A stretch of 49,172 bases of DNA, filler included, from Sphacelaria rigidula (taxonomy: Eukaryota), in the NCBI GenBank assembly GCA_964200075.2. It is 2 parts of 2 records of this genome, joined end to end, with 100 filler letters (N's around TTAATTAATTAA, not from the genome) between each part and the next. Parts side by side here need not be neighbours in the genome. Positions count along the whole stretch, not along the records: positions 1 to 24,540 come from CAXNAA020000199.1; 1 more part is not named here. One strand, written 5' to 3'. The position numbers were made by a program, and so were the translations under genes. Below the pieces are notes generated by a model. That model made no database searches, had not been told where the DNA came from, and worked only from the letters and a program-made list of their open reading frames with translations. Positions 1 to 24,640 of the stretch are shown piece by piece. Each line of letters starts with the position of its first letter. Positions within the stretch are counted from its first letter, which is position 1.

Positions 1-70
1 CTCTGTGACCACGGGTTCGAGAGATCGAGCTAATGTGATGGACGTAATAATAGTAATAATAATAATAACA
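1..70 (+). repeat. Probable 3' end of a non-LTR retroelement with (TAA)n tail
   Basis: Short unique segment followed by taataatagtaataataataataa; truncated by window start. Confidence 0.35.
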
Positions 71-801
71 CCCCCGAGCACTATGTGCTAGTGTAAATAA
101 GTACGTTTTACTATAGGATAGTGACCCAACAAAAGCTCGGGGCAGTGGGATCGGCCCTGTATAAAATGCAAGTGAACGATAAAAAAATCGGGAAAGCAAG
201 CCCCGACCACTTGGGCTTTCTTTTGCTTGGAAGGCTTTTTTGGGGGCCAGGGACAGGGTACACATACCAACTTAGCAGTGACATCACTCCCGACGACAGC
301 CCCCCCCCACTGGTCGTTCGGATGTGGTCGATAAATTCGCCTCGGTCTGATTGGGCAGGTCGCTCCCAGACTTTGTGTTTATTATTATTTTACTAATATA
401 TGGTGAAGCCCTTGTTACTGAGCTTCAGTCCCAAAAGGGTTAAGTATATTCGTGGCATTCTGAATCAGGTACACCTGATGAAATGGCAGAGACAGGTATC
501 CAAAGGAGGAAAAAACAGCGAGACGTTCAAGAGAAAATTGCGTTATAGGCTCAATGATCAATATTTTTCGATTCTTGAGTGATTCCTGACAACGACAACA
601 TCTACTTGGAATACATGGAGGAGGGATCGTTCACATCTACCCAGTGACTCAGTTATCCCCCCAAAATTGACCAAATTGCGTCCTCTGAAGGTCGAATGTC
701 GGAGCAGAAATGGGTTATATAATGCCAGTACCCCGGTTGATTGCAACTTCTACAACGTCCAAAACAAGGAAGGGATGGACAAAGACGACGACTCGTCTCA
801 C

Positions 802-895
802 TCGATTTCCTCCTCCATTTTGGCACACATTGCACTGGCTCCTTCCAGGTCTTGCTCCCGAGCCTCCAAAGATACTTTCAGCGCCGACAATGCTC
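802..895 (-). CDS. SMC exon (second coiled coil)
   Basis: aag|GA GCA...ATC GA|gtgaga; ALSALKVSLEAREQDLEGASAMCAKMEEEI. Confidence 0.82.
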
Positions 896-3800
896 CTTGC
901 GATTTCCCTTGTACACACCAACCCGTAAAATACGAGTTGAAGTTACGCGCGAGATCAAGAAAATAATACAAAAACACAGAACGAAAACGAGTAGAAAATG
1001 ATTTCAGGTTACCTCGCAAAATCTTTCTTGCCGTTTCAGACGATAACCGAATGATACAATTCTCTACCTGACGAAAGAAAACGAAAATATTATTCGAAAA
1101 GCTCGGTTTTGGATGGACAAAAATAGTGCAAGAGAAAATATCGTTACTTTTTGCTCCAGCGCAGTACTCGGTGGTCAATCTACGACTGCTGAACACGGTC
1201 CTGAGCCAGGGCAGGCTCGACGTTTCATCAAATGTACACACACAAAATGGTCAGCATGAACACCATTCGTCTTGCTAGTGACTGGTAATATGGAAACCGA
1301 AAACAGAGTCAAGAACCGGCAAGTACTTTCAAGAAAATCAAATGCGTGCAACACATATGTACATACATACATTACGCTCGGCATTGGAGTACATAATGTG
1401 CATACGGTCAGGCTTCACCTGTTGTTGTATGATGGACGTTCAGATTTCCAGTCACCAGTACATCGCAACGAGCTCTCTATGCACAAGAACACCACCTGTT
1501 TCTGTCGCGAAGCTGCCGGCAGCGGTGGCAGCTGTAGAGCCAGAAGACGCGGCCGTGTCGCTCTTCATCTCCCCTCCGTTGTTCGAAGCAAGGTGTTTCA
1601 TGTCGAGTCCCGCCCGCTCCGCGTCCACCCACCGTAGGTTTTCGCGCGCCGCAGCAACAATTCTCTCGCTTTCCGAGAGGCGCTGGGTGCACTGCATCAA
1701 CGGTTCATCGCAGCAGGAATATTTTCGTGTTTTCCCCCGAAAGCAATCTAAACGGTTGAACAACGCATGTTTTGACGACACCATCGATCGGACGAGAGGC
1801 AGCACAGGACACGCACACGCACCCCCACTTAGCGGGTACGATGCGAAAACGGAGAGAAGCGAAGGAAATCGACTAGACCAACAGGTGGCCGCAAGCACCC
1901 GTGTGGGTGTATTTGCGTGTTGTTTGGTTGTTAGGCGCGACGGTGCTGTGCTGAAGACCGAAGCAATTCTGCCCGTATATACAGACGGGTGTATTTTTGT
2001 TTCAGGTATTTTGTGTTATGCGTGTGTCCGGCAATACGGCGCTAAGGACAGAAGGGACCGACCGTCTCACATGTAAGGACACAACATCGATTATCCGCAC
2101 TTGAAAAAATATACTGATTCTAGAGTTGACCGAAAGGGGTACTCCCTTTAGTACGCATTGCAAACTTTCCCTCCACTGTGTACAGCGAATCGCTAAATAT
2201 CATCACGTTTTGCTTGTCGCACACGTACAAATGTGGAACATCGACACCATAGCGAAAAGAGAGAAAAAAATGTCCACCTCACCTTTGCTTCGCCGACAGA
2301 GGACCTGCTCGATCCTTCCGCTCTGAAGCTCAGTACCCAGCAAAGCGAATGAAACAAGAATATATGTGAACTGGTTGTTCCTCAAGTACATACCTCTTCA
2401 TGCTCTCGCTTCAGCCTGGCACGCCGTGCCTGCAGGCGTGCAAGCTCCGTTCCGGATTGAAGACGCCGCGTCAGGTCCCTGGTGCGAGCGCGCAGGAGGC
2501 AAAACACCCATGCCAGTGAGAGCAGCCAGGGATTCGGCCAGAATCGATCTGTAACGAAATCAGCATTACTGGGAAAGCTATTTTTCCATTAGCATTCCTC
2601 TGGCAAGTGGCCGTCCGCGCCCCAACCCCCCCCCCCGACCCCCCCTCGATCACGGGGTAAAATAGAATGCATGCGATCCTTTTGTATTCCGTCGCTTTTG
2701 ATTGATTTTACCGCGGACGACTTCGAGAGTATCGAGAACAGGGCAGCGCAGCACCGGGGATACGATGATGGTTTCACGAACCGGAACATCGTCACCAAGA
2801 TTGCTCGCATAACAAACCATGAAAAACTGTGACGCAAAGCTAATAGCATCAATGAAAAACAAAACAAAAATACAAGCGGCCGGGCAAAAACGGACCCCTT
2901 CCCGCACCCCCTTCTGTCTCGTGATGGTATCCTGTCTAGCACGACACGTCCGTGCCCTGCGAGCAAACTCCCTGGCTGAAACGCGACAGATAAGTGACTT
3001 TTATACCTGAATCTTCAAAACAATGGTGTACAGAGATGCAAGCTCCACATCTACTACCCTAACCGGTACAACCCAACCCTGCATAGACCTTCAACACCCC
3101 TTCGGGTACCGCAGTACGGGATTCGGGTTATCAAGGGAGGATCAAGAAGGTTACAGCACACCTCTTCCACATGAAATAGAAGGATCCAGTATTTTACGAA
3201 CATGGTGCACTTCGCATGGCTTGTGATAGGGTTAGGTTCTATTCATGCCTGGATCCCTCCGCGCATGCCTCAAGTGCTTCAGTCCGCTCCGTGTATGTGC
3301 GCACCGCAAGGTCGAACTCGGCCTTCGCCCGCAACTTGGCACCCTCTCCCCATGTCTCTCCACCGACCACTTCTCCTGGAGCGTGACGGACACAATGAAC
3401 TGTAATGCTACTCTGCCGGAGCTCTGACAAGAGCAACGCGCTCACCTCGTCGCTTTGAGTGAGGGGAGAGACGGTGAGAGAGGAAGGATGAGGGTTGAAG
3501 AACGTCTTTCCACGTACGCGGTACATCGTAGCATGCAGATGTGTAGGCGTACTCGGTTGTTGCATGGGAAAGGTAGCCGTATGTATTAGTCAACAAAACG
3601 AAAGTGCAACAAAAACCTCATGTGGGTTCAGCGGGAAGTGGCTTGGGACGAGGTTAGGCTGACAATACGTCAAGCCTACCACCTACTGCAGTGTGCTTTT
3701 ATCATTGTTTGGCCCATGCATGATACATGAAAAACGTTGGTAGGAGTCGTGTTACGATAGGAGTGCATAAATGTTTTCTGGGCCGGCGTACTGGAGTTAG

Positions 3801-6800
3801 ATATAGACTCTCGCGCACTCGCACTAGTGCTGTTTGGGTGCAGTTGCGTCTGAAGGTGAGGCGATCCCCTCGCAGGCAAACACCACAAATTGTGAAAAAT
3901 GTTTGTTCCACAACGTGAAAATACCTCAGACAAGTTTTGGCCAATAACGTGCACCCCTGCCATAGCACGACGCGTGGGCGAACAAAATGGCGATCGATCA
4001 CCGCCAGAATTGCCGCTAGAAAACTACTGTACCGCATGAAAAATCTCGGGAGCACTTTTTAAGAGTAGTGCGGAATGATCAAGGGCCGTCGTACTCCTTA
4101 TGCGTGCCGAAAAGCAGTGTTAGAAATGGTTTTTGCCCTTGCGTCTACTCCAAGTGTCTCACTCTGCAGCGATTACCCAGCCTCCTAGAGCCTTCCGCAT
4201 GGCGGCAGTGACGCTAGCGTCGGATGAATCCCACACCACCAACGACGCCGGGTCAATCACCTGACGCACACAATGACCATCGAGTACAACAACTGATTTT
4301 TTAGGGGCATGTAACGTGTTCACACACGCCAGGATCGCTCATTATCGCCCTGCCGGGGTTGTCGACTAAAGCGTACCCACGTATATCCTACAGGCTGCAA
4401 TACCGTGCGATAACAGCAGCTCCAAGTTTGATTTCACGGGTACTAGATACAAAGGCCCGTGTTAGCGGTATCCACACAACACAGTCCCATCGTCTCTGAA
4501 AGCTCTCCCCATTGTAATGTCTACGCAGTAGTTCTACTGTGTTTCTGCCGAACAGCAGAGCACAAAATCAGAACGACAACAGTACATAGAGAAGTCTCAG
4601 GCCTCGAAGTGAGTCGACCCATTTATCAAAGCCGAAAAAACGTATTCAAAGTGCTCTACCTTGACCTTGCCCGGCCATCTACGTCTCGCCCACTCCAGAG
4701 CTTTTGACACCTGCGTGCACCTTCGCTGCCATCCGTGCGCAGCACTCCTGAGGCGCTCGGCGGGCCTGAAGAGGGGAAGGGGGGATCACCGCAACCCGAG
4801 GAGTCTGCTCAGTGGACTCAGATCGCAGTCGAACTTGATGGACAATGTTCTTATTAGTGACGGGACAGGTGGTGAAGTGAAGAATCTGTGATAGATCACG
4901 CAACTGTGAATAGATTATTGCTCGTTTCTGTGACACGATGAAGGGGATAGGGCGGATTGTAGGGCTACAATGGCCGTACAAATTCAGTACTGAGCAAGCG
5001 ATGCTGCAAGTACTAGTTACTTGCGTGAGAAAGCTCGATAGAAGTGGTAGTGACTGTCATGTGAATCCCGATCTCCCAAAATGCAGAAAATATTAGTCAG
5101 TTATCGTTGTCGTCGTGGTCGTGGTGGTCGTCTACTAACACGCACTCATCCACCTACGAGGAAACGTTGTATACTAAAGCACACTACGAACTCCCCGTCG
5201 AAGCTATTTCGTGGGTTCAACGTACAGTACTGCAGTAAGTACGCTACAAGTAGTTGCAACGATGAGGATACTTCGCTTGAATTTCATGTCGACAAGCGTT
5301 ACCGTCGCACTTGCCATACTCTTAGACCAGCCCCATTGGCGTTGGCTAGATCAAGCGCTTCGTCGGCCTCCTTGGACGATGCACAAATCCACACCGTCAA
5401 AGAGCCCGCTGCGCCGCATGGCATCGAAAATTCAGGCGGGCAGACGTTACGGTCAAGTCTGAAATATGAAATCGGGGAGGTCCACAAGGGAATTGTAAAA
5501 ATATTGCATGGGCCGAGAACGTTATGCGGCTACTAGCGGAATACACGACGAGATAAACGTCTACGGTCGTAATTGAAAACGGTGGACACACTAGTGCCTC
5601 ATGTTACTTCGCCCATTGACTTTGTGCCGTGGGGAGAACGCGACGCCCCTCCTACCAGTCAGCAGCAAAACGCCGATAACGAAGCAAAACTCTCTTGATG
5701 CCCAACTCGGGTTTCTGCTCGGTGAACAGATGAGACACAAAAAACCCCACGAATATTCCATGGTTGAAAAGAAACATGTAAAAAAACAACGGCACATGAA
5801 ACAACACGACACTGACGCAAACAATCATAGTAAACTCCTGTCATCAATGAATGAGCAAATCCGCAACAAACACAGTCGGATACGACCCCTCTCCCCTTGC
5901 CTCTCCTCCTCTGGCGCCCCTCCCCGCCCGCTGGCCTATCACGTGCACTCACACAACAGCGATGCCAAACCCTGAAAGCACTTCTCCGCATTGCTATCCT
6001 GCTGCTTCAACTCGAACAGCTCGAACAAGAACCCTCGGTGACCCTGCTGCTGCGGCGAAGCTGCTCTGTTGGCATTCTCCCGCCCACCAATACCACCACC
6101 ACGGTCGTCATCGTGAATCACAGCAACATTGGAATCGTTTGCCACTGCGGCGGCGGGGGCGAGTAGTCGAGAGCACCATTCCGGGGTGCCCAGGCGCCGG
6201 CGGGCCTCACCACAAGCCTGTCTCGCTGCCTCGATATCGTTTGAAAGATGGAGGTGCCTCGATCGTTGGACACGACGTTGTTCCTGATGAATGCGAAATA
6301 CGTGATGCAATGATGCCAGAAGTGGGAGGTAGGTGAAGCACATATGTACTTTAACGGCAAGATTAAAACAACACTTGTGATGACACGAATGCAGGGATGT
6401 CCTACACTGATGCGCGGCTATCATGGCGGATTTGTTTCATGTCTACTGCAGTAGAGGCTGAACTCATTCCGTCCACAAGGTGGGGCTGCCCGCACTGCTG
6501 TCTCACAGTAACCGACAGTACAACAGCAGTGCAGTAGCCATGATCGCGCCAACAGTGACTGCCGTCGTACGTGAATGAGGTCAACACATGCAACTGAAGT
6601 CGAACTGTTCGTTGCTGAACAGTACAGTAGAGTCTGATTTAGCTCGCGCATAAGCGAGGGCCCGCCAGCTGCATTATTCCATGTTCGTTCCGAACAACCA
6701 GAATATTTTTCACATCGTTGTTCGAATGTTGCTGTGTCTGGATCCGCACAGCCTGGGCGTACGTAAACCGTACGCACACGCGTCTGAAGGGTTTCTTAGT

Positions 6801-9800
6801 ATTCTCCTCTTGGCAAAAACAATGAGTAGGAGACGCCCTTGTAGGGCATCCACCCACACGATGATGTCAAACAACTTTGAAGGACGCGAAATGAACAAAA
6901 CTCGGTTTGGAATTGCCATCCACGTGTTTGTGTGCCGTTTGATCGTCATAGCAAGAGATTTGAGTGAGACGTTGAACGAAACATTCGCAGCTTATGGAAG
7001 TGCGGGCACTTGCGGGGTAACGACTTTCATTCGTTGACATTTTCACCGTGGGAAGCGTGAGAACGTGAGTAAACAAAGTAGTTGACTGAGTTTGTTTGAC
7101 GTGAGTTAGCGCGGTGCGGGAGTGCTGACCCAATCCGCGAGACCAAAATGTAAGGCGTGTACCGGGGAGAGATAGGTTGATCCCTTGAGACCACGGACTC
7201 GTCCCGAGGAAGGGAGGGGTGCAAAGTGCGACAAATACAAAATAAATTAAGAAATAATGAATAATGAATAATGAATAATGAATAATGAATAATGAATAAT
7301 AAACAATATATAATATATAATATATAATACATAGTATATATTATATAATATATCATATATCATAAATCATAAATAATGAATAATGAATAATGAATAATGA
7401 ATAATGAATAATGAATAATAATTAACAATTAACAACTGATAATTAATAATTAATAACTAATAAATAATAAATGATAAATAATAAATAATAAATAGTAAAT
7501 AGTAAATAGTAAATAATGAACAATACATAATAAATCATACATAATAAATCATACATAATAAACAATACATAATACATAATACATAATACATAAGAAATAA
7601 TGAATAATGAATAATGAATAATGAATAATAAATAACAAATAATGAATAATATCAGCACGTGAGCACACCAATATATTCAGAACAATAGTCAACTGACCTG
7701 CAGCCCGTTGTCGTGAAAATTGACGTGAACGATCCTCACCTCTATCCCTCGAAGGTGCTTCTGAACGTCTTCGGTGCTGTGAAGCGGAGACCCAACCCGC
7801 TTCATGCTCTCCCAAACCTACCAGGAAGGAGGGTGGAGGGCGTGCCAGTTACACGAGTGTTTCGGCTGGCGCATTATCACGCACTTGCCGCCATTCGGCG
7901 CGCGGGTTCTGTCGACGTTCACATGCTAGCATCCATCCATCCCGCCCTATCCCAATAATCCACAGACACAACCTGCACATAAACGGGGAACGCTTCAGTT
8001 TTTGGATGAAGTCACACTGAATTGAATTCATCCTTTGAGCGTCCGTGCTGGTCGTTCCGTAAGCACTTCACGGCGGACAGCCCCCACGAATTTGAGGAGG
8101 TCGAGAGTGAACGTCAATCTTCGATATGGCGAATGGTCTGCAGCTTATGTGTTGATGAATACTAGTGGCACAGGAGCGCTCCAGGAAAATTCTCAAAAAT
8201 GACTTGAGAGTCAACGGGAATGGCTCTAGAATTCGTTGCCGGATTGGCAGGCGGCGAGTGTCGTAGCCGATCATTTCCAACTGTAATTTTTGCGGGCGCC
8301 CACTCGATGCCAGGCCACACACAGTGAATGGCGCGCCCGCCGGCGATGGCTATTTGGAAGGGTCCTCGTGAATGCATGACTTAGTGTATTGGCGCCATCG
8401 TCACCCACGATGGTCTCCACGCATCATGAGCAACGCGCTCAGGGCAGCTTTGGGTTCGTGGCTCAAACCCGAAGGATCATGACACACGGGAGCCCGCAAC
8501 AACGTTTGTCTACGCAGACCCTTGTAGGCGGGCATTTTAGAGGATCCTCGTGTACTTGCATTATATATTGTACAGGCGACATCGCCTCATACGATAGTCT
8601 CCACGCATCACAAGCAATACGTTCAGAGCAGCCATATGGGTTCGTGGCTCAAAGCCCAAAGCATCATAACACACGGCATCCCCCGACTCCGTTGTTTCCA
8701 TACAGACGCTGCCGCTCCACCACAAAACAGCGGTGTCCAACTGAAAGCCCAAGTACCCACTACGGCGCTCAAAGGGCCAAAAGATACGTCTATATATTCA
8801 AAGTTCATATCTTGACCTACGTCGTCCTGATACTTCGCGGAGGGGTGGTCAATTGAGCATCGTTTGTAATTGTCATGACTGGAGTACGGAAGCGTTTTCT
8901 CGAAAATCTAGAGAAAAATCGTACAGGTGAAGGGCTACGAGGAAGCGAGGTGACACCAAGGGGAAAATATCACCACGGGATGTCCGCAGCAGCTCATGAG
9001 GGTATCGGACATGGCAAGAAGTCAGATACTACAGGAGACTGCATGACAATGTCCGAGGTCGTCTTCATCAAGGATAGTCGTCGATACGTTTCTCTCTGGA
9101 CGGATGCGTTACTCTGGTGCCATTCAACCGCCGTCGAAGGGTTCATTTTGTACCTCGTCCAAATCCCCTGCTACCGCTGCTACCTCCGATCTCCGCGCCG
9201 ACACATCTGCTTCCGCGCGGGACGCGGCGGACGAGGCCGTGACGTGGCGCGCCTCAGCACTGGCAACGACCGCTTTGTGGTCATCGTCCAGTGATTGACG
9301 CACCGCCCTCAGGGCTTCCTCAGGGTTGCCTCGGCTGGGATCAAAAGGTGCCAAAAATGGCGCGAGCACACACATGGATACGGCAGTACACTTGATCTGT
9401 AGCGTGGCACGTTGTTGAGGTTCCGACGTTAGAGGAGCAGGGTTGACAGAGCTCAACCAAGACTGATTTTATGGCCTGTGCATCGCCCTTGTGTTTATTT
9501 GCACAGGACACACAGAGGACAACTATTCGATTGAACGAGCCAGCAGATAGTGAACAGCACATTCCTTCATCCTCCATGTGAAATTGAAGTACCCCGTAAC
9601 GAGTCTAAGCTGCAAAGCGAAAGACCGTCCAACGATTGCTACGGGAATTACCCCAGATCATTGCCTCTCGTCACGCAGCGCTCCGAGCACAAATACAACG
9701 CTAGCCGACGCAAAACAGTACCATTATGCAGGGATCACAATTCAACATTGCACGCACAGGCAGCTTCACCTGTCCTACTGTTGACAAACAAAACTTTGCG

Positions 9801-12800
9801 ACACACACAAAATATTCATAAAACAAAAGACAAACACACCTTCCTTCCGCAGCCATCAGCCTTGACCGCGTCCTACGAACCTCCTCCTCCAGCCGTCCTC
9901 TCCGCTCTCGAAGGCTCACAATCCTGTCCCTCAGCACGGTAGATTTCGCCTCGAGGCCCCGTCTTTCTCTTTCAGAGTCCTGAAGTATTCGCCCCCACTG
10001 AGCGTCGAGTCCTTCCTTCTCTCGGAGAGCGACGGTTTCCAGCTTAGCCTTTGCGTGTATGTAGTGGACATGGGGAGAGAAGACTACGAGGTGACGCGCA
10101 TGAAACTGGTTAATCGCACAACGTATTTCGCGATCGTCGAGCTAGTCGTCATGATCAGTCATATGGCAGCGTATTTGTAGTTTCACAGAATACAGGACGA
10201 GAAAATGTGGGCGCTCTGTATGCGTTAATATTGTAGAGGTTGATGCGCTGTGGGTGCGGTTGCACCGAGAGATTTGTTTATAGATATTCTGAGGCGGCTA
10301 TTGCAAGAGAAGAGAGAAGGCGTTTGTGTGTGTGAGGTCAGCGTGCTACACAGCTATTTGCTTTCGACGGTAGCGAAACTCGAGACGCATGGGGGAAGAA
10401 GTGTCTGCCAGCCTTAACGAGAGCCACACGTACCACTATTACACCGCACAAAAAATCGCAATGAAAACAGATACACAATACAGCGAATAATGCGCAAAAA
10501 GCAATCAATCGCGTCTACCTGGATGGTAATGGCATGCGCTCTGTTGCCACATCACCTCTGTCGAAGCTTGGACCAGGTCTGTTAGTACCCCCAAGAGCTT
10601 CTTTTGCAACGCTTCGCTGCCGTCCTGATCGTCCTGGCCGCTTCTTCTCTCGCCAAGCCGGGTCATCTCGCTCTGCAGTGCGCGAAATTGTTCCTCCAGC
10701 TCCTTTTTGTCGCTTTCTAGGGTCTATGCGTAATGTTGAAAGTGTTTCGCAAAGCGTTCATAGGCACCAATGGGGTATAGAGGCTGTACGTCATACCTCG
10801 TACTGTATTGCTGCCTCAGAGTTGGTCAAGAAAAAATGGTCCACCGAATGCGAAGGGAAATCTGTGTATCTTCAGTATTGGGAAACCTATTTCTTTTTAC
10901 ACTCGCTGTTTTTCCCATGGACAGCACCAACGAGGCGATGTGTCTTGGCTGACCTGATGCAACCTGACTGTCGAAACGATGAGACAAGACGCAACACGCG
11001 TCACTTCGAGCACAGCCCACATAGGCAACGACATTATCTCGCCATGTTTCTGATGGCCGGGCCACATCACGTTTACTTCGTATGAGATGAACAACCGGCT
11101 TCAAGCAAGGCGAGAAAAGGCGCGAGTCACGACAAAAAGAGGTGCGGGCAAATATAATCCTTCTTTCACCTCCAGTTTAGACGTAAGGCGTTCCACAAGC
11201 CCCGCTGCGGCTCTCTCTTCCGCCTTGGCTATGTCATGGTCGAGGATCTTCATTTTAGCCGGGATGGAATCTAGCTCTTCCTCAATCTGCGTATTACACG
11301 GTGGGAGTACGGGTACCGTGTGGACGAAATGACATCGATTGTACCCTGATGTCCTCGAAATACGTGAGTGTCTGCTCGAGCCCACATGGTACGCGATATC
11401 TTGTAAACGGTGGAGAAAAAACAGCGGGGCCGACTGACGATCCGTATGAAATTTCTCAGTATACATGAAACATATAGTGCACCAGGTCAGCATTTGCAGG
11501 CGACACTTCCTGTTGACTTGGGGCAGAATTTGGCCACATTGTATTCGAAAAAAAGACGACACGAATATTGCGCGCTGCGGACGTCTGCGACACATCACAG
11601 GTCGACAGCACAGACAGGACATTCCCGGATATATTTCTCGAAAGCGCGAAAACAACTAGGCAAGGAAAAAAACGATGGCAGCCGTGATCACCTCACGGAC
11701 TCTGTCCATGGCCTGAAGATGTGCTCCCTCCTTGCCCACCGTCTCTTCCAGTGCCTTCCGTTCATAGACCGAACAAGGGTCAAAATGAGGCACAAGACGC
11801 AACGAGGTTGATACAACCGACCAACAACACGGAAGCGAGAGAGGGCGCGGGGGGGGGGAGGGGTACTCATGATCATGCATGCCATAGTCATCAGACCATT
11901 GACCTCGCATCCCTACAAAGCCGGGACGACGCCGGGTTTTCATCGGACCAGGCTCGCACTCAATCACCAAGCGCGAAGCGCCGTGGTGTGTTCGGTGAGT
12001 CGCATGAAGGGTGAGCTACATCCTGCTAAGTAAAAATATTCGGCCCGAAGCTTACTGATTATCTTGCCTTCGGATGACAACCTACAATGAGCTGCTGCAT
12101 TCTCTGGTATCGCCGATTCCAGAGACAGCCACGGCTTAGACGCTGCCTCGTGGGTGTCTCATCATCATTTATACACTACGTTGTACGATCATCCCCATTG
12201 TACGGAGTTGAGATTCTCCCACGCCGCACAACATGATCTAGCTCCACTACGATCATGGTTACCGCAAAAAAAAAACGCATGCGCGCAAAACAAACGGTAA
12301 CCTGGGCACCTAGCTTACGCAGTGAGTGGCGTGAAATATAGCGTCACCGACAACCGACGCCAACCCCATCGGGGGTTCGCCCCTACAAAGCCGCGACGGA
12401 GCACGCCGGGTTCTCGCAGAACCAGGCTAAGGGGTGGGGGTGGGGGGGCGTACTCATTTGTTGCTTGCCTTAGTCGTGTGACCATTGACCACGCATCCCT
12501 TTCGACGCGGGGGGAAGGGGGGGGGGGAGACACACAGAGAGACACAGAGGGACAAAACACAACAAGAGTGAGGGTGGGATCGTGTGTATTGCACCCACGC
12601 TGTCGTCGCATATGCTGCGCAAGAAAGATCGGGTTTCACGCACACACCGCATGCATCGAAGCACACTGCAATCTGTGCCTGGGTGACGTTGGGCAGCAAT
12701 CTCTTTTACTTGATTGCCGCCGCTGCACCACACTTTACTCACACAGCTACGCATACCCTCTTCTCGCTAAGCGTACGACCCTACACAATCCGCCAGCACA

Positions 12801-15517
12801 CGCTGGCCAGATCCTGATCGCATGCAAAACGTTCGACTTACGACAATGTTCGACTGTATATCCGCGAGCGAACTCCTCCACCGCCTGAGTTGCCTGATAG
12901 CATTCGAGCGGTGCGCGTTTATAGCCTTGGTGCCAGATGCCTCGCACATGGAATCGTGGAGGGCATGCGGCGAAGCATTGAGCTACCGTCGATTATGTCG
13001 CAGACGCCGGCGGGACGATGCAAGACGATGTTGAGCAAGTGTGTATCCGGTGAAAGCGACGCCCCCCAGGAAGGAAGAGTGCGTTGCGGTCGTGAGGGAG
13101 CAAAATCACGAACGGCGTGCAAAGGTGGATGTTGTGTCAAGAGTCTCACAGTAACGTGGGCTGATGGTCTGAAGAGCAAAGTCCGAGGGATCAGACGGGC
13201 GAGGAACACCCTCAATCGTTGGCACCGAGCGCAAAATAAGGGGAACTCGACTCCCGTAGCTCAGTTCGGCTGAACCATGCCGACAAGGAGCACGTGCACT
13301 GCACCGCAGTGTCGACATATGAGATTTTTGTCGAGTTACGAGTGCGCGAAGGCGGTAGTTTGCAAGGTTAAAGGATTCACTGTGAGATGGCATGAAATAT
13401 TCGGGACAACAATAGATCTCACCAGCTGTCGAATCCCATCTTGGCTGACGCGCCAGAAGGGGTTGCCCGTAGCGATACCCAGTTGCACACGCAGTAGGTG
13501 GTCGAATCTGTGCCGCACAAACGGCGGAAGAGTCAACAAAGTGGACACGCGACCGAATGTAATCATCTGGGGCTTCTGTGTGACGACTTGTGCGTAGGCC
13601 CTAATTCTTTCGGGAGCATCTCTTCCGCAACTAGGAATGACGGTATCTTCCAGAACATGCAGATATGCTCAACATAAGCATAGATCAAATCCGATGGGAC
13701 ATCGCCAGTCTCATGGCAGGGGTACCCGCCCACCCCACCGCACACCGCAAAGCACAACGATTTGTTCTTGCTCTGCGCAGGGTGACATGGTCAAGGATTT
13801 TAGCATGTTTCTATTACGGAGTACGTAAACATGAATATGATACCTTGTGGGGCATATTTCTTATGGGCGCGGAAAGCTGCGACGGCAGACCTGTGTTTGG
13901 GGAGTTTCTGCCCGTTGAACGCAAACGTCCGTTGGCCATTAGCCCGAGACACGACTGACGAAACCTACATGCACAATAGACGCAACAAGCACAACAGCAG
14001 GAAGATCATACAGTGCAGTTTTATGTCACTCGATGTTGCTCTCAATTCTTGCTCGTTTCTTGGGTGTTTGCTGCCACACAGACTCACAAAAACGCCGGTC
14101 ACGAGTACTGGTGGGGATGCAAGTGCAGCACCAGGATTGCCCAGCAGACAACTGGAGGAACGCCAACAGAATCAATGGGCGTGTACCATTGCACCAAGAC
14201 ACGTCAGGGGGAAACACCGAAGAACAATATTTGCAACTGACGGAATCAACTCGGTTCCTTGGCACCGGATAACATGACGACCAGCCTACTTGTCAGACTG
14301 ACGCGTGTCGTGTGCTTGCTCATCTACGTGGGCTCTCCAGCCAACAGCAGCGCATCGTGGCGAGGGTGTAGTTCCCGTCGACAGGTTTACTGGACATCAT
14401 TGATACTGACCTTGACATCGCTGAGGTTGCGAGTAACGTCGCGGAACACAAGCTCTACCTCAGCATGCGCCGCCGATGTCAGGTCGGCGTTCTTTGTAGC
14501 CGTTCGTGTGTTTAATGCAGCGTGAGGTGGCGGGAAGGCAAGCAAAGCGGAGACGGAAGTGAAGATCGGCCTTGATGAGCGGTAGTGGCAGGTGCATATT
14601 GTGTGAGAGTGGATAAATAACGCGATCCGTTAAAGCCGTTCATGATGCTTTGCTGATCGAGTACCCCCACGATCAGCACCTCGTGAGCCCAACATCCGAG
14701 CCAAACACAAATACATGATCACTCGAAGATGGCTTGATTCATCGTATGTGTGTGTAGAGGAGAGGAGGGAGGCGGGGGGGGTCGGATACTGTCGTTATCC
14801 TATTGTGTGTGCTGTTGTGCCAAAAAGGTCGGGGAAAACATAGACGGTGTGCCATAGTTTTCAAGTAACCTAATGAACACCGAAATCTCCAGGAAAGATG
14901 TGTCAAACGACCGCACAAACCGTGCTGTGACGTCACCAATTTTTATCCCCACAAGACGATACCTTGGACCCTTGTTCTTTCACGGGTCTTGCAACCACCC
15001 CGTTTACGGTAACGGGGTTCTGCGCCCGACAGTGACTATACGCCAAGGGGTCAATGGATAAGAAAAGCACGGCGGCGCTGGTTGGGGCTCCTTAGTGTGA
15101 GGGTCGTTCGAACTGTATGATGCAATTGACGTTGATCACGTCTCCGCTTGGCTTACTTCAAGCATCGTGAGCAGAGACAGTACGGTAGAGGCAGGTATCT
15201 AAATATGAAGAAGTAGAGGACGGTTCTCGTATGTAGAGAAAGGATGCAGCGCCCGGCAAGGAGGATACAACCGCCAGCGGGAAGAATACATCACGGTACG
15301 CATACAGCAAAGGTACGGTGAATAGTATATAGTATTGCATCATTTCACGCAACTTTACCCGGTGAACTTCAGACTCTCTTTTCAGTGAGGCAGTGTACAG
15401 CATCACGCGAATGATGTCTAACCTGTCTGGCTCCTAGCTGGGTGGCACTTTCCCCGAGGCCGAACAAAATAGCGTTCAGCAACGTCGATTTCCCCGCACC
15501 GTTTGCACCAGTGATGC
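802..15517 (-). CDS. Divergent SMC-family (structural maintenance of chromosomes) ATPase, multi-exon; 5' end unresolved, 3' part beyond window start
   Basis: 19 exons join in consistent phase with AG acceptors and GT (possibly two GC) donors: 15423-15517, 14411-14491, 13891-13964, 13423-13507, 12842-12982, 11692-11754, 11170-11286, 10556-10672, 9840-10048, 9154-9334, 7740-7817, 5953-6283, 5315(or 5303)-5408, 4666-4765, 4163-4260, 3249-3452, 2394-2478, 1496-1691, 802-895. Motifs appear in SMC order: ITGANGAGKSTLLNAILFGLGE (Walker A), AEVELVFRD, RTFAFNG, NPFWRVSQDGI (Q-loop), MCEASGTK (EEAAGT-like), ~300 aa coiled coil, hinge (GFLFELFEL...GSLTVWIC...AMRKALGGWVIAAD...PGEVVGG), second coiled coil. 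Confidence 0.88.
1496..1691 (-). CDS. SMC exon (second coiled coil)
   Basis: cag|TGC...ACA G|gtggtg; CTQRLSESERIVAAARENLRWVDAERAGLDMKHL...ATET. Confidence 0.8.
2394..2478 (-). CDS. SMC exon (second coiled coil)
   Basis: cag|G GAC...GAG|gtatgt; DLTRRLQSGTELARLQARRARLKREHEE. Confidence 0.82.
3249..3452 (-). CDS. SMC exon (hinge end, GxxxGG)
   Basis: aag|C GAC...; DEVSALLLSELRQSSITVHCVRHAPGEVVGGETWGEGAKLRAKAEFDLAVRTYTERTEALEACAEGS; donor inferred as AG|gcatga. Confidence 0.8.
4163..4260 (-). CDS. SMC exon (hinge)
   Basis: cag|GTG...GCA GA|gtgaga; VIDPASLVVWDSSDASVTAAMRKALGGWVIAA(D). Confidence 0.88.
4666..4765 (-). CDS. SMC exon (hinge)
   Basis: polypyrimidine tract + cag|G CCC...AAG|gtcaag (alternative donor at 4660); PAERLRSAAHGWQRRCTQVSKALEWARRRWPGK. 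Confidence 0.78.
5315..5408 (-). CDS. SMC exon (hinge)
   Basis: cag|CG GGC...GTA TG|gcaagt (or ...CG|gtaacg ending at 5303); GSLTVWICASSKEADEALDLANANGAGLRVW. Confidence 0.82.
5953..6283 (-). CDS. SMC exon (end of arm, start of hinge)
   Basis: cag|GAA...TTG T|gtgagt; EQRRVQRSRH...GHRGFLFELFELKQQDSNAEKCFQGLASLL. Confidence 0.85.
7044..7245 (+). mobile_element. SINE family A, 5'-truncated copy
   Basis: ~200 bp highly similar to 17878-18075 (caccgtgggaagcgtga...gagaccacggactcgtcccgaggaaggg...gtgcaaagtgcga). Confidence 0.8.
7246..7650. repeat. AT-rich microsatellite array, mainly (AATAATG)n and variants
   Basis: Direct 7-mer repeats with ATAAT/ACATAAT variants, directly following the SINE 3' end. 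Confidence 0.95.
7740..7817 (-). CDS. SMC exon (coiled coil)
   Basis: tag|GTT...GAG|gtgagg (alternative donor after 7698); VWESMKRVGSPLHSTEDVQKHLRGIE. Confidence 0.7.
8393..8710. repeat. Diverged direct duplication, 185-bp spacing
   Basis: cgccatcg...gtctccacgcatca...gggttcgtggctcaaa...acacacgg at 8393-8520 and 8578-8710. Confidence 0.75.
9154..9334 (-). CDS. SMC exon (coiled coil)
   Basis: cag|C CGA...GAG|gtacaa; RGNPEEALRAVRQSLDDDHKAVVASAEARH...VAGDLDE. Confidence 0.85.
9840..10048 (-). CDS. SMC exon (coiled coil)
   Basis: aag|GCT...GGA AG|gtgtgt; AKLETVALREKEGLDAQWGRILQDSERERRGLEAKSTVLRDRIVSLRERRGRLEEEVRRTRSRLMAAEG. Confidence 0.85.
10556..10672 (-). CDS. SMC exon (coiled coil)
   Basis: cag|AGC...GAG|gtgatg; SEMTRLGERRSGQDDQDGSEALQKKLLGVLTDLVQASTE. 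Confidence 0.78.
11170..11286 (-). CDS. SMC exon (coiled coil)
   Basis: cag|ATT...GAG|gtgaaa; IEEELDSIPAKMKILDHDIAKAEERAAAGLVERLTSKLE. Confidence 0.85.
11692..11754 (-). CDS. SMC exon (coiled coil)
   Basis: aag|GCA...GAG|gtgatc; ALEETVGKEGAHLQAMDRVRE. Confidence 0.75.
11860..12375 (+). repeat. Interspersed repeat family E (unclassified), copy 1
   Basis: Colinear similarity to reverse complement of 47255-47750 (gtactcatgat...ccctacaaag...caatcaccaagcgcgaagcgccgtg...ttccagagacagccacg...catggttaccgcaaaa...acggtaacctgg). Confidence 0.8.
12842..12982 (-). CDS. SMC exon (head to coiled-coil junction)
   Basis: tag|CTC...GTC|gtaagt; LNASPHALHDSMCEASGTKAINAHRSNAIRQLRRWRSSLADIQSNIV. Confidence 0.88.
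13423..13507 (-). CDS. SMC exon with Q-loop
   Basis: cag|A TTC...CTG|gtgaga; FDHLLRVQLGIATGNPFWRVSQDGIRQL resembles the SMC2 motif VQLNVNNPHFLIMQGRI. Confidence 0.88.
13891..13964 (-). CDS. SMC exon (head)
   Basis: tag|GTT...CAC AG|gtctgc; VSSVVSRANGQRTFAFNGQKLPKH(R). Confidence 0.85.
14411..14491 (-). CDS. SMC exon (head)
   Basis: aag|AAC...AAG|gtcagt; NADLTSAAHAEVELVFRDVTRNLSDVK. Confidence 0.85.
15423..15517 (-). CDS. SMC exon with Walker A
   Basis: cag|GC ATC ACT GGT...AGA CAG|gttaga; ITGANGAGKSTLLNAILFGLGESATQLGARQ. Confidence 0.92.
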
Positions 15518-17779
15518 CTGCGGTGAGACAAAGGTGGGTGGAAGCTACATGTCAGTACGTGCGTGTGGCATTCGCGACTCTTTTCTACAGTGGAGCGGCT
15601 TAACGGTAGATGGCTGTACTGTACTGGATTGCAGCCTCGGCCACGGCATGCGATACTATACTGACGCGCTCCGTACTCTGTGTTGTGTAGCTTTTATTTG
15701 ACACTGGCAGTGATTTCCACGCCTCCTTGACGATGCGCTCGTGATCTGCGCACAATCATCCCGCCGAGTCTTTTCATAGCAGTCCAAGCTCCTGGGTTAT
15801 TCCGCCGACCTGTACGTGCCTGTCTGACCATTGCTACGCAGATAATTGCCATACCCGAGCTCACAGACACTAACAGAGACAGCTGATGGGTTATTGTCTG
15901 AAAACAGTGTAACGCTCGCGGCTTGTTTCTTTTTTCTACGCACTTCTGAACATGTCAGTATCTTTATGGGACATGACGAATATTGACTTCAAGAGATGGA
16001 CGCTGCATACTTGACCTCTACTTCACCAGGAAACCTTCACCACCCGGCAAGCAGAACCGATCTTGACTACGGGTGCACTATACATAGCATAGGTGAAGAG
16101 CAATCCCTGGTAGACCTTTCACATCAGAATGAGGTGATGCGGCATGAGAGCGGGAAGAGCTTGCCCCCACTTTGGTGTGTACAACCTCTCTGTCGGCCCT
16201 AGCGTTTGGTATAGCAAGGGCAAGAAACTGCATTTTCGTACTATATCGCTTCCCAGGGCACTGAGGCCACGCCCGTGCAAGCTGATTTGGTCGGAAAGCA
16301 CTTCGCTCCTTCACCGCAACTGTATTTTACTTGGAATGTACAAGATGTGGATACATGTACAGCATACCACATGCTGACTTGACGCTGAGAACCGGGTGAG
16401 TACAAAGCCGCGGCCCGAATCCCCCAGCGATCCCTTTTCTTCAACAATACCCGCATCCACGATGGCATAGAAACCGTCGAACAAGGGGCGGACATCGTTC
16501 ACATTATCTGCAGTTTATCTTACACGACATACAGAAGGCTCCGGCAACGACAAAGTATCTCCAGCACGAGCCCCTGAAAATACTGAGATGGTGTAGAAAC
16601 GAGTCTGAATGTCTATCCCCAGTCTCGAATCATTACACGACCCCTTGGATATCCGCGTTTTCCATACTTTCTGCAGCGTATGTTATGCTACTGCTTCGGC
16701 ACGAAGCTGTTCGCTTTTTTTCCCCCGCCCACATGTTGTTACCCGTTGTTACCTATAGTAACAACAACCTTCGTGCCCTCGAGTAGAGTCATTCAAACTT
16801 TAGTACGGAAATGAGCGATATAACACGTAATCCTTAAATACGGTATTTAGATTCCAGGGTGAAGTGTCAAAGCATGATTATTCGGAGATGTACCGTAGGC
16901 AACGAAGCACGGGCAGCAAATACTTTCAGGTCGCCACAATGCCAAAACTGGTGCATCATCGGCCAATTTGGGCGGGGTGGTGAGTTCGAATCCGGATGAA
17001 AATACTGGTTCACTTCACTCGTTTCTGTTGTGGAAAAGCGAAAGAACGTGGTTAAACAGAGGGTCGACGAGAGGAGACGCGAGAAATCACTCGACTCGTG
17101 TTCATGTAAGGCTTTGCCCGCTCTCTCTCAAATTTTGTCCGAGTATGGCTGACACAACGAGGAGTAACGTCATATTCATGTTGGGTGTCAGCGCCGTTGA
17201 CGTTCGAAAGTTGCTGAGAAAAAAAGAAAAAAATGTATGAACTCTTTTTGTCTTGCACTTCATTTTGTTTTTCATCTCCCATTCTCGCGTATCCTCCGGC
17301 GAATGTTTTCGCTACCGACACGCAGCATTGACGTCAGAGGTTGTCATCGGAGGATTCGAGAAAAAAGTATATCCCTTCCGGAAACAATGGTCGTTTGTAC
17401 TGAGAACGAGAAGGTTTGAAATGATCGGATATATTTCCTTCAATGGCTTGATTGTTGTTCGGACGGTCCAATATCGGGCTCCGATAGATTTCGGTTCTAT
17501 GGAGTAAGACCAATCAAGGACACGCGCTGAATGGCAACCTCTGAAAGTTCTACACTTTTCTACGAGTGTTGGTATGGTTGAAGGCGTCTGCCACGGCGAA
17601 GGGAGTGGAGAAGGTGTTCATGTCGCTACGCGCGAACGGTGGATTACGAGGTGAGGAAGTATGAACACGTGCGCGTTTCCGAGGCAGACTAGTCGAAGGA
17701 AAGGCCGCCCGTCAATTTTCCCGTGCCGTGTAAGTCGTGCGAGCAAGCAGAGTATGATGGAAGTATGATTCCGGTTTGC

Positions 17780-24540: not shown

Positions 24541-24640
24541 NNNNNNNNNNNNNNNNNNNNNNNNNNNNNNNNNNNNNNNNNNNNTTAATTAATTAANNNN
24601 NNNNNNNNNNNNNNNNNNNNNNNNNNNNNNNNNNNNNNNN
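24541..24640. other. Assembly gap: N44 + TTAATTAATTAA + N44 (artificial linker)
   Basis: 100-nt block; the 12-mer has stop codons in all six frames and is flanked only by N. Confidence 0.95.

Follow-up and report, generated by a model that had tools for sequence, protein, structure and literature searches.

Does the SMC-like gene scattered over small exons in Sphacelaria rigidula belong to the known eukaryotic set of SMC proteins, or to something beyond it? In the textbook view, three or four SMC complexes assembled from SMC1-6 organise eukaryotic chromosomes, and two recent surveys restate this set (PMC8665677; bioRxiv 10.1101/2024.01.07.573240). The gene was studied in a window of 49,172 nucleotides (the whole stretch of DNA analysed, filler included), where a first-pass annotation had proposed an extra, fast-evolving SMC that fits none of SMC1-4 well, with an SMC2-like flavour and a segment aligning ungapped to SMC1. 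Our best explanation, which we consider probable, is that there is a distinct and old subfamily of eukaryotic SMC ATPases, separate from both SMC1-6 and prokaryotic Smc, and that this brown-algal nuclear gene encodes a full-architecture member of it. About 60% of the gene would then lie in the window, reaching from the exon with Walker A into the first part of arm 2, with the 5' exon or exons and the 3' 40% out of sight.

The exon chain

Nineteen minus-strand exons (15517..802; Table 1) join in frame into 2512 nt, or 836 codons, free of stops and frameshifts, with AG acceptors and GT or GC donors at all joints. The end points are exactly those of the first-pass annotation, which had estimated about 815 codons, and its three minus-strand frames with head motifs are present where it had placed them (GANGAGKST at 15509-15483, FWRVSQDG at 13458-13435 and CEASGT at 12946-12929). 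The 18 introns measure 383-1456 nt; 16 are GT-AG and two GC-AG, and the family motif RVWPAERL arises only with the GCAAGT joint of exon 13. Exon 12 carries the first part of the hinge (GHRGFLFELFEL at 6043-6008). An (AATAAAT)n array occupies 7241-7651, inside the intron after exon 11.

Exon borders were set by a splice-site search guided by the Scytosiphon ortholog P0004 (1397 aa), and the last two joints by reading the sequence; the predicted junctions are drawn from homology and splice consensus alone. With P0004 as query, tblastn returned 19 colinear minus-strand matches running from 15515 to 816 (query residues 57-851; E-values from 0.39 down to 9e-19), and the window model is colinear with residues 57-855 of this ortholog, with 58.5% identity over 781 aligned residues. 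Furthermore, the ORF P0001, from a contig of a related species, has a Walker A exon identical to that of the window, and 13 of its 27 flanking "intron" residues differ, a pattern that fits the exon borders 15517 and 15423.

Table 1. Exons of the window model (T, tblastn match to P0004; S, P0004-guided splice-site search).
Feature	Coordinates	Strand	Content	Basis
Exon 1 (first in the model, though not in the gene)	15423..15517	-	Walker A; acceptor CCGCAG|GC; starts in codon phase 1	T
Exon 2	14411..14491	-	N-head beta strands	T, S
Exon 3	13891..13964	-	N-head	T, S
Exon 4	13423..13507	-	Q-loop, FWRVSQDG	T, S
Exon 5	12842..12982	-	CEASGT, arm 1 start	T, S
Exon 6	11692..11754	-	Arm 1	T, S
Exon 7	11170..11286	-	Arm 1	T, S
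Exon 8	10556..10723	-	Arm 1	T, S
Exon 9	9840..10048	-	Arm 1	T, S
Exon 10	9154..9334	-	Arm 1	T, S
Exon 11	7740..7817	-	Arm 1	T, S
Exon 12	5953..6283	-	Arm 1 end, low-complexity insert, hinge start	T, S
Exon 13	5315..5408	-	Hinge; GC-AG intron, donor GCAAGT	S
Exon 14	4660..4765	-	Hinge	T, S
Exon 15	4163..4260	-	Hinge, VIDPASL	T, S
Exon 16	3249..3452	-	Final hinge strands (…HAPGEVVGG), arm 2 start; GC-AG intron, donor GCATGA	T, S
Exon 17	2394..2478	-	Arm 2	T, S
Exon 18	1496..1691	-	Arm 2; Ser/Ala/Thr/Gly-rich insert; donor is the least certain joint	T, S
Exon 19	802..907	-	Arm 2; ends at donor GTGAGA	T

A search of 1-801 yielded no exon after exon 19; the gene therefore extends past the window edge, which leaves the latter half of arm 2 and the whole C-terminal half-head outside. 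Of the head, ~300-aa arm, hinge and second arm previously annotated, an SMC hinge is present and arm 1 is predicted, the head is part of the N-terminal half-head only, and arm 2 is cut at the window edge after about 156 aa.

Head, hinge and arms

On sequence grounds, the window gene encodes an SMC: Walker A and the Q-loop are both there, and its hinge is of the SMC type. Pfam assigns the ORF enclosing the Walker A exon to AAA_23 (33 bits; cutoff 27), with SMC_N at 30.6 bits. SMC_N scores are higher for P0004 (132.6 bits) and P0002 (100.2 bits), and NCBIfam SMC_prok_B aligned over residues 81-1141 of P0002. The Q-loop Gln is found in the window (FWRVSQDG) and in 18 of 18 family rows. The Pfam SMC_hinge cutoff (22.5 bits) is passed by the Willaertia member (25.4 bits) and missed by the orthologs from brown algae, which score 15.3 and 16.9 bits. 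When the family hinge, window model included, was aligned by hhalign to a profile of SMC1-4 and prokaryotic hinges, the probability was 99.5% (E 3e-22, 156 columns). The stretches 151-470 and 681-836 of the window model, the latter an incomplete arm 2, align with the arms of relatives and are richer in A/E/L/K/R/Q (fraction 0.58-0.60) than head and hinge (0.44-0.47).

Only one structure prediction shows long helices, the AlphaFold2 model of P0032, a complete member from Pythium (mean pLDDT 75.9, heads ~90), where two helical arms (165-476, 651-1004) are predicted on either side of an alpha/beta hinge (490-642) that matches the human condensin hinge 4u4p_A (TMt 0.62). Its best Foldseek matches were full-length yeast Smc4 (E 2.5e-33), Smc5/6 chains and yeast Smc2. 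The C-terminal half-head is described from orthologs and relatives, not from the window copy: SGG, the Walker B D-E and the D-loop D are each conserved in 18/18 rows, and the signature, Walker B, D-loop and H-loop motifs are intact in complete orthologs. The predicted family proteins carry no targeting extension, and 11 of the 15 listed N-termini begin 2-7 residues ahead of the first SMC strand.

When paired with itself in modelling, the hinge scored 0.36 (best of three controls, 0.00), the runs agreeing on at least 93% of contacts with a partner pLDDT of at least 76. This mark was reached by 21/30 proteins with solved one-chain pairs and 0/23 with solved single chains among microbes, and by 17/29 and 0/30, respectively, among eukaryotes. 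The modelled interface comprises residues 606-611 (GLRVWP) and 705-711 (PGEVVGG); since SMC hinge dimers have been solved, the pass may reflect likeness to known structures rather than binding.

A family across distant eukaryotes and its deep position

Family members occur in brown algae, oomycetes, a chrysophyte, Cyanophora, Taxus, a fern, Willaertia, Anaeramoeba and a diplonemid. Among 20 relatives looked up, 11 carried organism names; all 11 are eukaryotic, with no animal, fungus or flowering plant among them. No published description of the family was found in the literature. An all-against-all comparison gave reciprocal best scores within the family (~100-220 bits within it, ~75-121 bits to SMC2). 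The fast-evolving extra copy first envisaged is not supported in that form: the gene represents brown algae in a family that spans distant eukaryotic groups and has conserved motifs of its own. These include a hinge Trp (17/18 family rows vs 0/25 others) and a residue other than Gly after the Q-loop Gln in most members (Gly in 2/18 vs 25/25). Neither the hinge Trp, nor the C-x-S-H-H H-loop (His in 18/18), nor D-E-x-N-Q after the D-loop (Q in 15/18) occurs in any of the six SMC2 rows.

A maximum-likelihood (ML) tree was built from 44 rows and 495 head and hinge columns under a site-heterogeneous model (C20 PMSF); its sample held one SMC1, one SMC3 and one SMC4, no SMC5/6 or Rad50, and no SMC2 from a family-carrying species. 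In this tree, which covers part of the phylogeny proposed in the first-pass annotation, the family is monophyletic (100/100; stem 1.14) and lies outside the canonical clades, the stramenopile members forming one clade (97/94), as vertical descent predicts. SMC2 forms a clade excluding the family (100/98), SMC1 groups with SMC4 (100/99) and SMC3 stands on a separate branch; the family joins SMC2 and SMC3 (99/98), and within that group SMC2 (89/66). Removal of five long family rows gave the same result (family 100, family with SMC2 90).

Known identities were rejected in turn. The claim that the gene fits none of SMC1-4 holds: P0004 scores at most 80 bits against solved SMC structures (best, yeast SMC2), whereas the SMC3 and SMC4 controls reached 609 and 900 bits against their solved orthologs; SMC2 is set aside by this and by its clade, and SMC1, SMC3 and SMC4, with one sequence each, by their placement in the tree. 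No SMC5/6 chain appeared in the best 60 of 71 and of 78 matches (E <=0.01) of the ortholog profile and P0004, respectively. The prokaryotic Smc equivalogs TIGR02168 (119.3 bits; cutoff 567.35) and TIGR02169 (74 bits; cutoff 729.4) fall short, and Rad50/SbcC, which has a zinc-hook CxxC at the hinge position and a Rad50-type head, is rejected by the SMC hinge and by solved Rad50 chains that match the last ~90 residues only, at <=42 bits.

The ML tree sets the family beside SMC2/SMC3, although its deep position is unsettled: AU tests, on groups chosen after the tree had been seen, did not reject canonical SMC1-4 together without the family (p 0.081), the family with bacteria (p 0.070) or the family with SMC1/4 (p 0.090). 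Because of the tree and the SGGQ signature (16/18 family rows), descent from the SMC2/SMC3 (nu) lineage is suggested, possibly before the last eukaryotic common ancestor. The SMC2-like flavour noted at first agrees weakly with this, and a special relation to SMC1 is not borne out. More tentatively, with somewhat less than an even chance, the family may be a seventh SMC subfamily inherited from that ancestor and building an unrecognised SMC complex, combining the nu-like SGGQ with a prokaryote-like H-loop His and a W-P-L-D-R-L hinge strand, and kept in stramenopiles, glaucophytes, non-flowering plants, heteroloboseans, Anaeramoeba and diplonemids.

That H-loop His (18/18 family, 8/8 bacterial and 4/8 archaeal rows, 0/9 SMC1-4 rows) would fit an origin outside SMC2/3 equally well, and is one argument for an unlikely alternative, a bacterial or archaeal Smc that an early eukaryote took up separately from the SMC1-4 radiation and that works as a Smc-like homodimer. 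SMC_prok_B is also the best NCBIfam model, the best solved match of the Taxus member is Pyrococcus Smc (91 bits), the grouping with bacteria survived the AU test, and the hinge passed self-pairing, perhaps through likeness to solved structures. Yet in the ML tree the family falls with SMC2/SMC3 while bacteria (100/100) and archaea (97/94) form clades of their own, all 16 prokaryotic rows read SGGE where the family shares SGGQ with SMC2/3, and SMC_prok_B stays far under its cutoff. Besides, an exhaustive search included no prokaryotic protein among the close relatives, and its bacterial Smc rows matched mainly in the C-terminal head (E ~1e-10 to 1e-11).

As for the window copy itself, no 5' exon for the first beta strands (~55 codons in P0004) was found within 12 kb upstream (best profile gain 6.7 bits, at a site 11 kb away), so that a decaying or unexpressed 5'-truncated relic of the family gene has to be weighed; the exon 18 low-complexity insert, absent from orthologs, would also fit such a relic. 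We give this little credence, in view of the unbroken 19-exon frame with proper acceptors and donors, the conserved motif residues and the Walker A exon kept identical in a related species beside diverged flanks. Brown-algal gene models are incomplete: that of Undaria misses the Q-loop exons and likewise the first exon, which indicates that a short divergent 5' exon is easily missed. Marginally less credible still are separate SMC2 duplications in each group, their fast copies united by long-branch attraction: the long stem and ends (up to 2.1), the letter make-up skewed in many rows, missing same-species SMC2 and within-family scores not far above those to SMC2 would allow it, but the derived characters absent from SMC2, the family support retained without the five longest rows and the site-heterogeneous model speak against it.

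Proposed assembly and comparison with known SMC systems

For the old eukaryotic subfamily preferred here, the two half-heads would fold back along an antiparallel coiled coil of ~300 aa per arm, as in other SMCs, and the hinge may dimerise, as modelled, through the strand with the family-specific RVWP and the strand ending in VVGG. ATP binding would then engage two heads, and a kleisin-type partner would close a ring holding or extruding DNA in the nucleus. One more conserved SMC of full architecture, its ATPase motifs intact, would imply an extra DNA-handling machine, maybe missing from model organisms, in groups of ecological and economic importance, among them kelps, oomycete pathogens, conifers and free-living amoebae. 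The family also provides a handle for phylogenetic profiling toward the partner kleisin, and bears on the growth of the SMC set that preceded the last eukaryotic common ancestor. Paramecium SMC4-2 is an example of a lineage-specific specialised SMC paralog (PMC10700549).

Among known systems, SMC2, the nu-SMC of condensin (yeast condensin 6yvd/6yvu), has the head-arm-hinge-arm-head layout predicted for the family, is the best match of P0004 among solved sequences (the alignment spanning N-head to hinge), shares the LSGGQ signature and is the ML sister group. It differs in its Q-loop (QG; QD, QN or QS in the family), its hinge strand ((V/T)(F/L/I)(V/I)(Y/I)P(N/L)(N/S) in three displayed rows; RIWPLDRL in the family) and its H-loop (SLK; SHH in the family). 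SMC3, the nu-SMC of cohesin, shares the wider clade and SGGQ; the ortholog reaches at most ~58 bits against solved SMC3, and the single SMC3 row differs from the family in its H-loop (TTFR) and its Q-loop (QG). Prokaryotic Smc (Smc-ScpAB; TIGR02168/TIGR02169) resembles most members in length (~1060-1250 aa) and the family in the H-loop histidine, a homologous hinge profile and a hinge that can be modelled as a homodimer, and differs in its sub-cutoff profile match, its signature E in place of Q and its separate clade. C. elegans DPY-27, another lineage-specific specialised paralog, and SMC4-2 are likewise additional SMCs beside the standard set, presumably in specialised complexes; by their descriptions, both are recent SMC4 duplicates of a single lineage, whereas the present family spans several supergroups and is nested in no canonical clade here.

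The predicted gene and its surroundings

The window has a G+C content of about 50%, and the three motifs by which a first-pass annotation had recognized a divergent SMC paralog (GANGAGKST, FWRVSQDG and CEASGT) were found in stop-to-stop frames of its minus strand. With the Scytosiphon promiscuus ortholog (P0004, 1397 aa) as tblastn query, 19 colinear matches were obtained, covering query residues 57-851. Exon joints were chosen by donor/acceptor pairs, keeping the frame, avoiding stops and seeking the best fit to P0004; the last two joints were settled by direct reading of the sequence. The resulting predicted gene comprises 19 exons and 836 stop-free codons (see table), which confirms the spliced, stop-free chain of SMC exons noticed in the first-pass annotation and reproduces its end points exactly. 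Of the 18 introns, 16 have GT-AG borders and two have GC-AG borders, both GC-AG joints being needed for a gap-free alignment to the orthologs; the least certain joint is that of exons 18 and 19, where a Ser/Ala/Thr/Gly-rich insert of the window sits. Across 781 residues the model shares 58.5% identity with P0004. Its Walker-A exon is identical to the corresponding part of a contig ORF from a related species (P0001) whereas the flanking residues differ at 13 of 27 positions, a contrast that fits the putative borders of this exon.

Positions of the features discussed (window numbering)
Feature	Position	Strand	Remarks
SMC gene model	15517-802	minus	19 exons, first to last
tblastn matches of P0004	15515-816	minus	19 matches, colinear
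Walker-A exon	15517-15423	minus	borders in agreement with P0001
GC donor GCAAGT, after exon 13	5313-5314	minus	sole option yielding the family hinge motif …RVWPAERL
GC donor GCATGA, after exon 16	3247-3248	minus	ungapped match to P0004
(AATAAAT)n array	7241-7651		58.6 copies, 85% matches; inside the 1456-nt intron of exons 11/12
ORF with PHD_pln match	12301-12885	plus	opposite exon 5 and the next intron
Rejected first exon	17491-17450		tblastn, P0004 N-terminus, E 2.8
N runs	24541-24584; 24597-24640		44 bases each

The model opens with an exon that begins in codon phase 1, following a strong acceptor, and therefore at least one upstream exon, carrying the first beta strands, must exist. The tblastn candidate for this exon was rejected, as it has no listed donor with the phase required by the Walker-A exon. 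A search of all window ORFs with an HMM of the family N-terminus gave scores of 6.6 bits at most, and the in silico joining of 540 phase-compatible GT donors from the 12 kb upstream to the Walker-A exon gained no more than 6.7 bits over baseline. At the other end, the last exon terminates at a GTGAGA donor and no further 3' exon was found in window 1-801, which places about 500 codons (the remaining arm 2 and the C-terminal half-head) outside the window.

Regarding the rest of the window, the region 15600-49172 (~33 kb) has 96 stop-to-stop ORFs of 95 aa or more, none of which matched a Pfam family at E <=0.001, and whatever genes it holds would have small exons or belong to unknown families. 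The 50 ORFs of at least 95 aa on both strands of 1-15600 gave no other domain beyond one sub-threshold PHD_pln match (18.9 bits vs a cutoff of 29.8), which is probably due to chance. Minus-strand 'YYSLFIIHY' pseudo-ORFs arise from the (AATAAAT)n array.

SMC identity and extent of the family

Judged by its predicted protein, the gene is a non-canonical SMC. Of the two domains that the first-pass annotation named for checking, Pfam SMC_N was recovered in the brown-algal orthologs (132.6 bits in P0004; 100.2 bits in P0002, from Undaria pinnatifida) and Pfam SMC_hinge stayed below threshold. The NCBIfam bacterial Smc model spans almost the entire Undaria protein, with 119 bits vs a cutoff of 567. 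When profiles taken from a single joint alignment were compared, the hinge of the family (the window gene and its non-canonical relatives, window model included) matched that of SMC1-4, archaeal and bacterial Smc with 99.5% probability (E 3e-22, 156 columns); the arms are enriched in A/E/L/K/R/Q. The AlphaFold2 model of a relative's protein, the complete Pythium member, has a mean pLDDT of 75.9 (heads near 90) and consists of a pair of half-heads, two long but interrupted helical arms and an alpha/beta hinge. In Foldseek, this model best matched full-length yeast Smc4, chains of Smc5/6 and yeast Smc2.

When the 60-aa Walker-A frame was used as query, a word search gave three matches, two of them close relatives (P0001, a 122-aa ORF with 82% identity, and the 1164-aa Undaria protein). 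The latter retrieved 12 proteins at E <=0.001, itself included: strong matches (E 0 to 1e-214) came from S. promiscuus (P0004), Pylaiella littoralis and Ectocarpus sp., and the other eight had E 2.7e-5 or weaker. These matches mark the window as brown-algal. An exhaustive search with the same query gave 3778 proteins at E <=0.001, 125 at <=1e-10 and eight at <=1e-30; among the matches listed were many short brown-alga-like fragments together with full-length proteins of ~1060-1350 aa, which align end to end or across some 240 C-terminal residues. Organisms were looked up for 20 of the 150 listed matches, 11 of which had organism names: the oomycetes Pythium oligandrum and Achlya hypogyna, Mallomonas annulata, Cyanophora paradoxa, the plants Taxus chinensis and Ceratopteris richardii (a fragment), Willaertia magna, Anaeramoeba ignava and A. 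flamelloides, Rhynchopus euleeides and 'Eukaryota sp. TZLM3-RCL'. When all were compared with one another, the family proteins proved to be mutual best matches, ahead of SMC1, SMC2 and bacterial Smc, by a moderate margin (~100-220 bits inside the family vs ~75-121 bits to SMC2). As a lead only, the nearest cluster of a protein atlas is eukaryotic, Chlorophyta being commonest. No new family member appeared in the best 120 listed matches of a profile word-index search, mostly prokaryotic Smc and SMC2. The family profile hit three loci in viral contigs; the longest ORFs at two of them, on IMG/VR contigs filed as viral (L001, 3001-6438, 560 bits to a bacterial Smc; L002, 2068-2604), are ordinary bacterial-type Smc genes, and the third is without SMC match.

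Some public gene models of the family and its neighbors deserve mention. The Undaria model is devoid of the first beta strands and the Q-loop segment (window exons 3-4; alignment columns 115-167 vs P0004), and those of Pylaiella and Ectocarpus of the entire N-terminal half-head; the Q-loop exons being present in the window, these absences are probably annotation gaps. Furthermore, P0132 (1289 aa; an ABC-transporter-like N-terminal half plus pieces of an oomycete-type member) and P0178 (Malassezia SMC2, 1588 aa, in which a mitochondrial-carrier domain follows SMC2) appear to be merged gene models.

In public databases the family proteins go by 'hypothetical', 'RecF/RecN/SMC N-terminal domain-containing' or 'structural maintenance of chromosomes protein', and full-text searches of the literature gave no description of the family. 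In its relevant passages, one survey expects SMC1-4 in all eukaryotes, reporting them as complete in Naegleria fowleri and found in diplonemids, with a partial SMC2 in Cyanophora (PMC8665677). Since canonical SMCs are thus reported in these groups, the family is likely additional to SMC1-4 there, a statement that holds at the level of these groups. The abstract, section 9 and further passages of a 2025 survey deal with SMC1-6 only (bioRxiv 10.1101/2024.01.07.573240); the supplements of both surveys may bear on the family.

Phylogenetic position and origin

Phylogenetic analysis was based on a 44-row MAFFT alignment (18 family members plus the window model, six SMC2, one each of SMC1, SMC3 and SMC4, eight archaeal and eight bacterial Smc), with 495 well-filled head and hinge columns kept and rows labeled from source names, solved-structure matches of controls, or best matches. 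In the main tree (IQ-TREE, LG+C20+F+G4 by PMSF; UFBoot/SH-aLRT supports), the family forms a clade (100/100) on a stem of 1.14, next to clades of SMC2 (100/98), SMC1+SMC4 (100/99) and archaeal Smc (97/94). It groups with SMC2 (89/66) and, at a deeper level, with SMC2 and SMC3 (99/98). Inside it, the stramenopile members hold together (97/94; oomycetes, Mallomonas with one further row, brown algae with two further rows), and the window model pairs with Scytosiphon (100/99). Earlier quick trees were concordant, and dropping five long family rows left a quick tree essentially unchanged (family 100, with SMC2 90, with SMC3 98). AU tests on groups named only after the tree was seen did not reject a grouping of SMC1-4 that excludes the family (p 0.081), the family with bacteria (p 0.070) or the family with SMC1/4 (p 0.090). 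From these supports and AU outcomes, the monophyly and distinctness of the family are well supported, and its placement in the nu lineage (SMC2/SMC3) is a best estimate, not settled. The first-pass idea of an extra, fast-evolving SMC is partly supported: the gene is a non-canonical SMC, but as a member of an old, widespread family instead of a private, fast-evolving copy.

Diagnostic residues in the family and in the other aligned rows
Residue	Family	Others
Q-loop Gln	18/18	25/25
Gly following Q-loop Gln	2/18	25/25
Hinge-strand Trp (IWPLDRL; window RVWPAERL)	17/18	0/25
Signature SGGQ	16/18	SMC2/3 yes (7/9 SMC1-4 rows); SGGE in SMC1/4 and 16/16 prokaryotes
Walker B D-E and D-loop D	18/18	intact where residue present, except D-loop Glu in 3/8 bacterial rows
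H-loop His	18/18	SMC1-4 0/9; bacteria 8/8; archaea 4/8

The ATPase machinery looks intact in complete relatives. As read from the alignment, the characters of the family are a mosaic of a nu-like signature and a prokaryote-like H-loop; because of this mosaic, a prokaryotic origin is kept as the main rival to the nu-lineage placement, the H-loop speaking for it. An organellar role, as a plastid or mitochondrial Smc, was set aside: 11 of the 15 family N-termini listed start 2-7 residues ahead of the first SMC strand, without N-terminal extensions, and non-photosynthetic lineages also carry the family. For these reasons the sequences favor a nuclear role.

Proposed working and comparison with known SMC types

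By homology, the protein chain would fold back on itself and dimerise at the hinge, ATP would bring the heads into engagement, and a kleisin would bridge the SMC. When two copies of the Scytosiphon hinge (residues 540-730) were modelled together, the score was 0.36, against 0.00 for the best of three controls. This mark was reached by 21/30 microbial proteins solved as one-chain pairs and 0/23 single chains, and by 17/29 and 0/30, respectively, in eukaryotes. Contact agreement between runs was at least 93% and partner pLDDT at least 76, the predicted interface consisting of GLRVWP (606-611) and PGEVVGG (705-711). Since SMC hinge dimers are solved, this pass may stem from resemblance to those structures; as a prediction, it fits a homodimer and a heterodimer with another SMC alike and cannot separate them.

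Two systems with similar names are set apart: Chlamydomonas 'SMC7' is an unrelated pyrenoid protein with no more than a coiled coil in common, and the 'hinge-less' marine actinobacterial SMC variants (PMC12153180) are of another kind. With regard to solved structures, the best match of P0004 is yeast SMC2, at only 80 bits, together with Pyrococcus Smc (73 bits), SMC1A (67 bits) and SMC3 (58 bits); SMC5/SMC6 chains are absent among the matches listed. A search with the ortholog profile agreed with this, and for the Taxus relative the scores were 91 bits with Pyrococcus Smc and 86 bits with SMC2. Control proteins scored 900 bits (yeast SMC4) and 609 bits (human SMC3) against their solved orthologs, vs <=80 for P0004; true orthologs therefore score an order of magnitude better.
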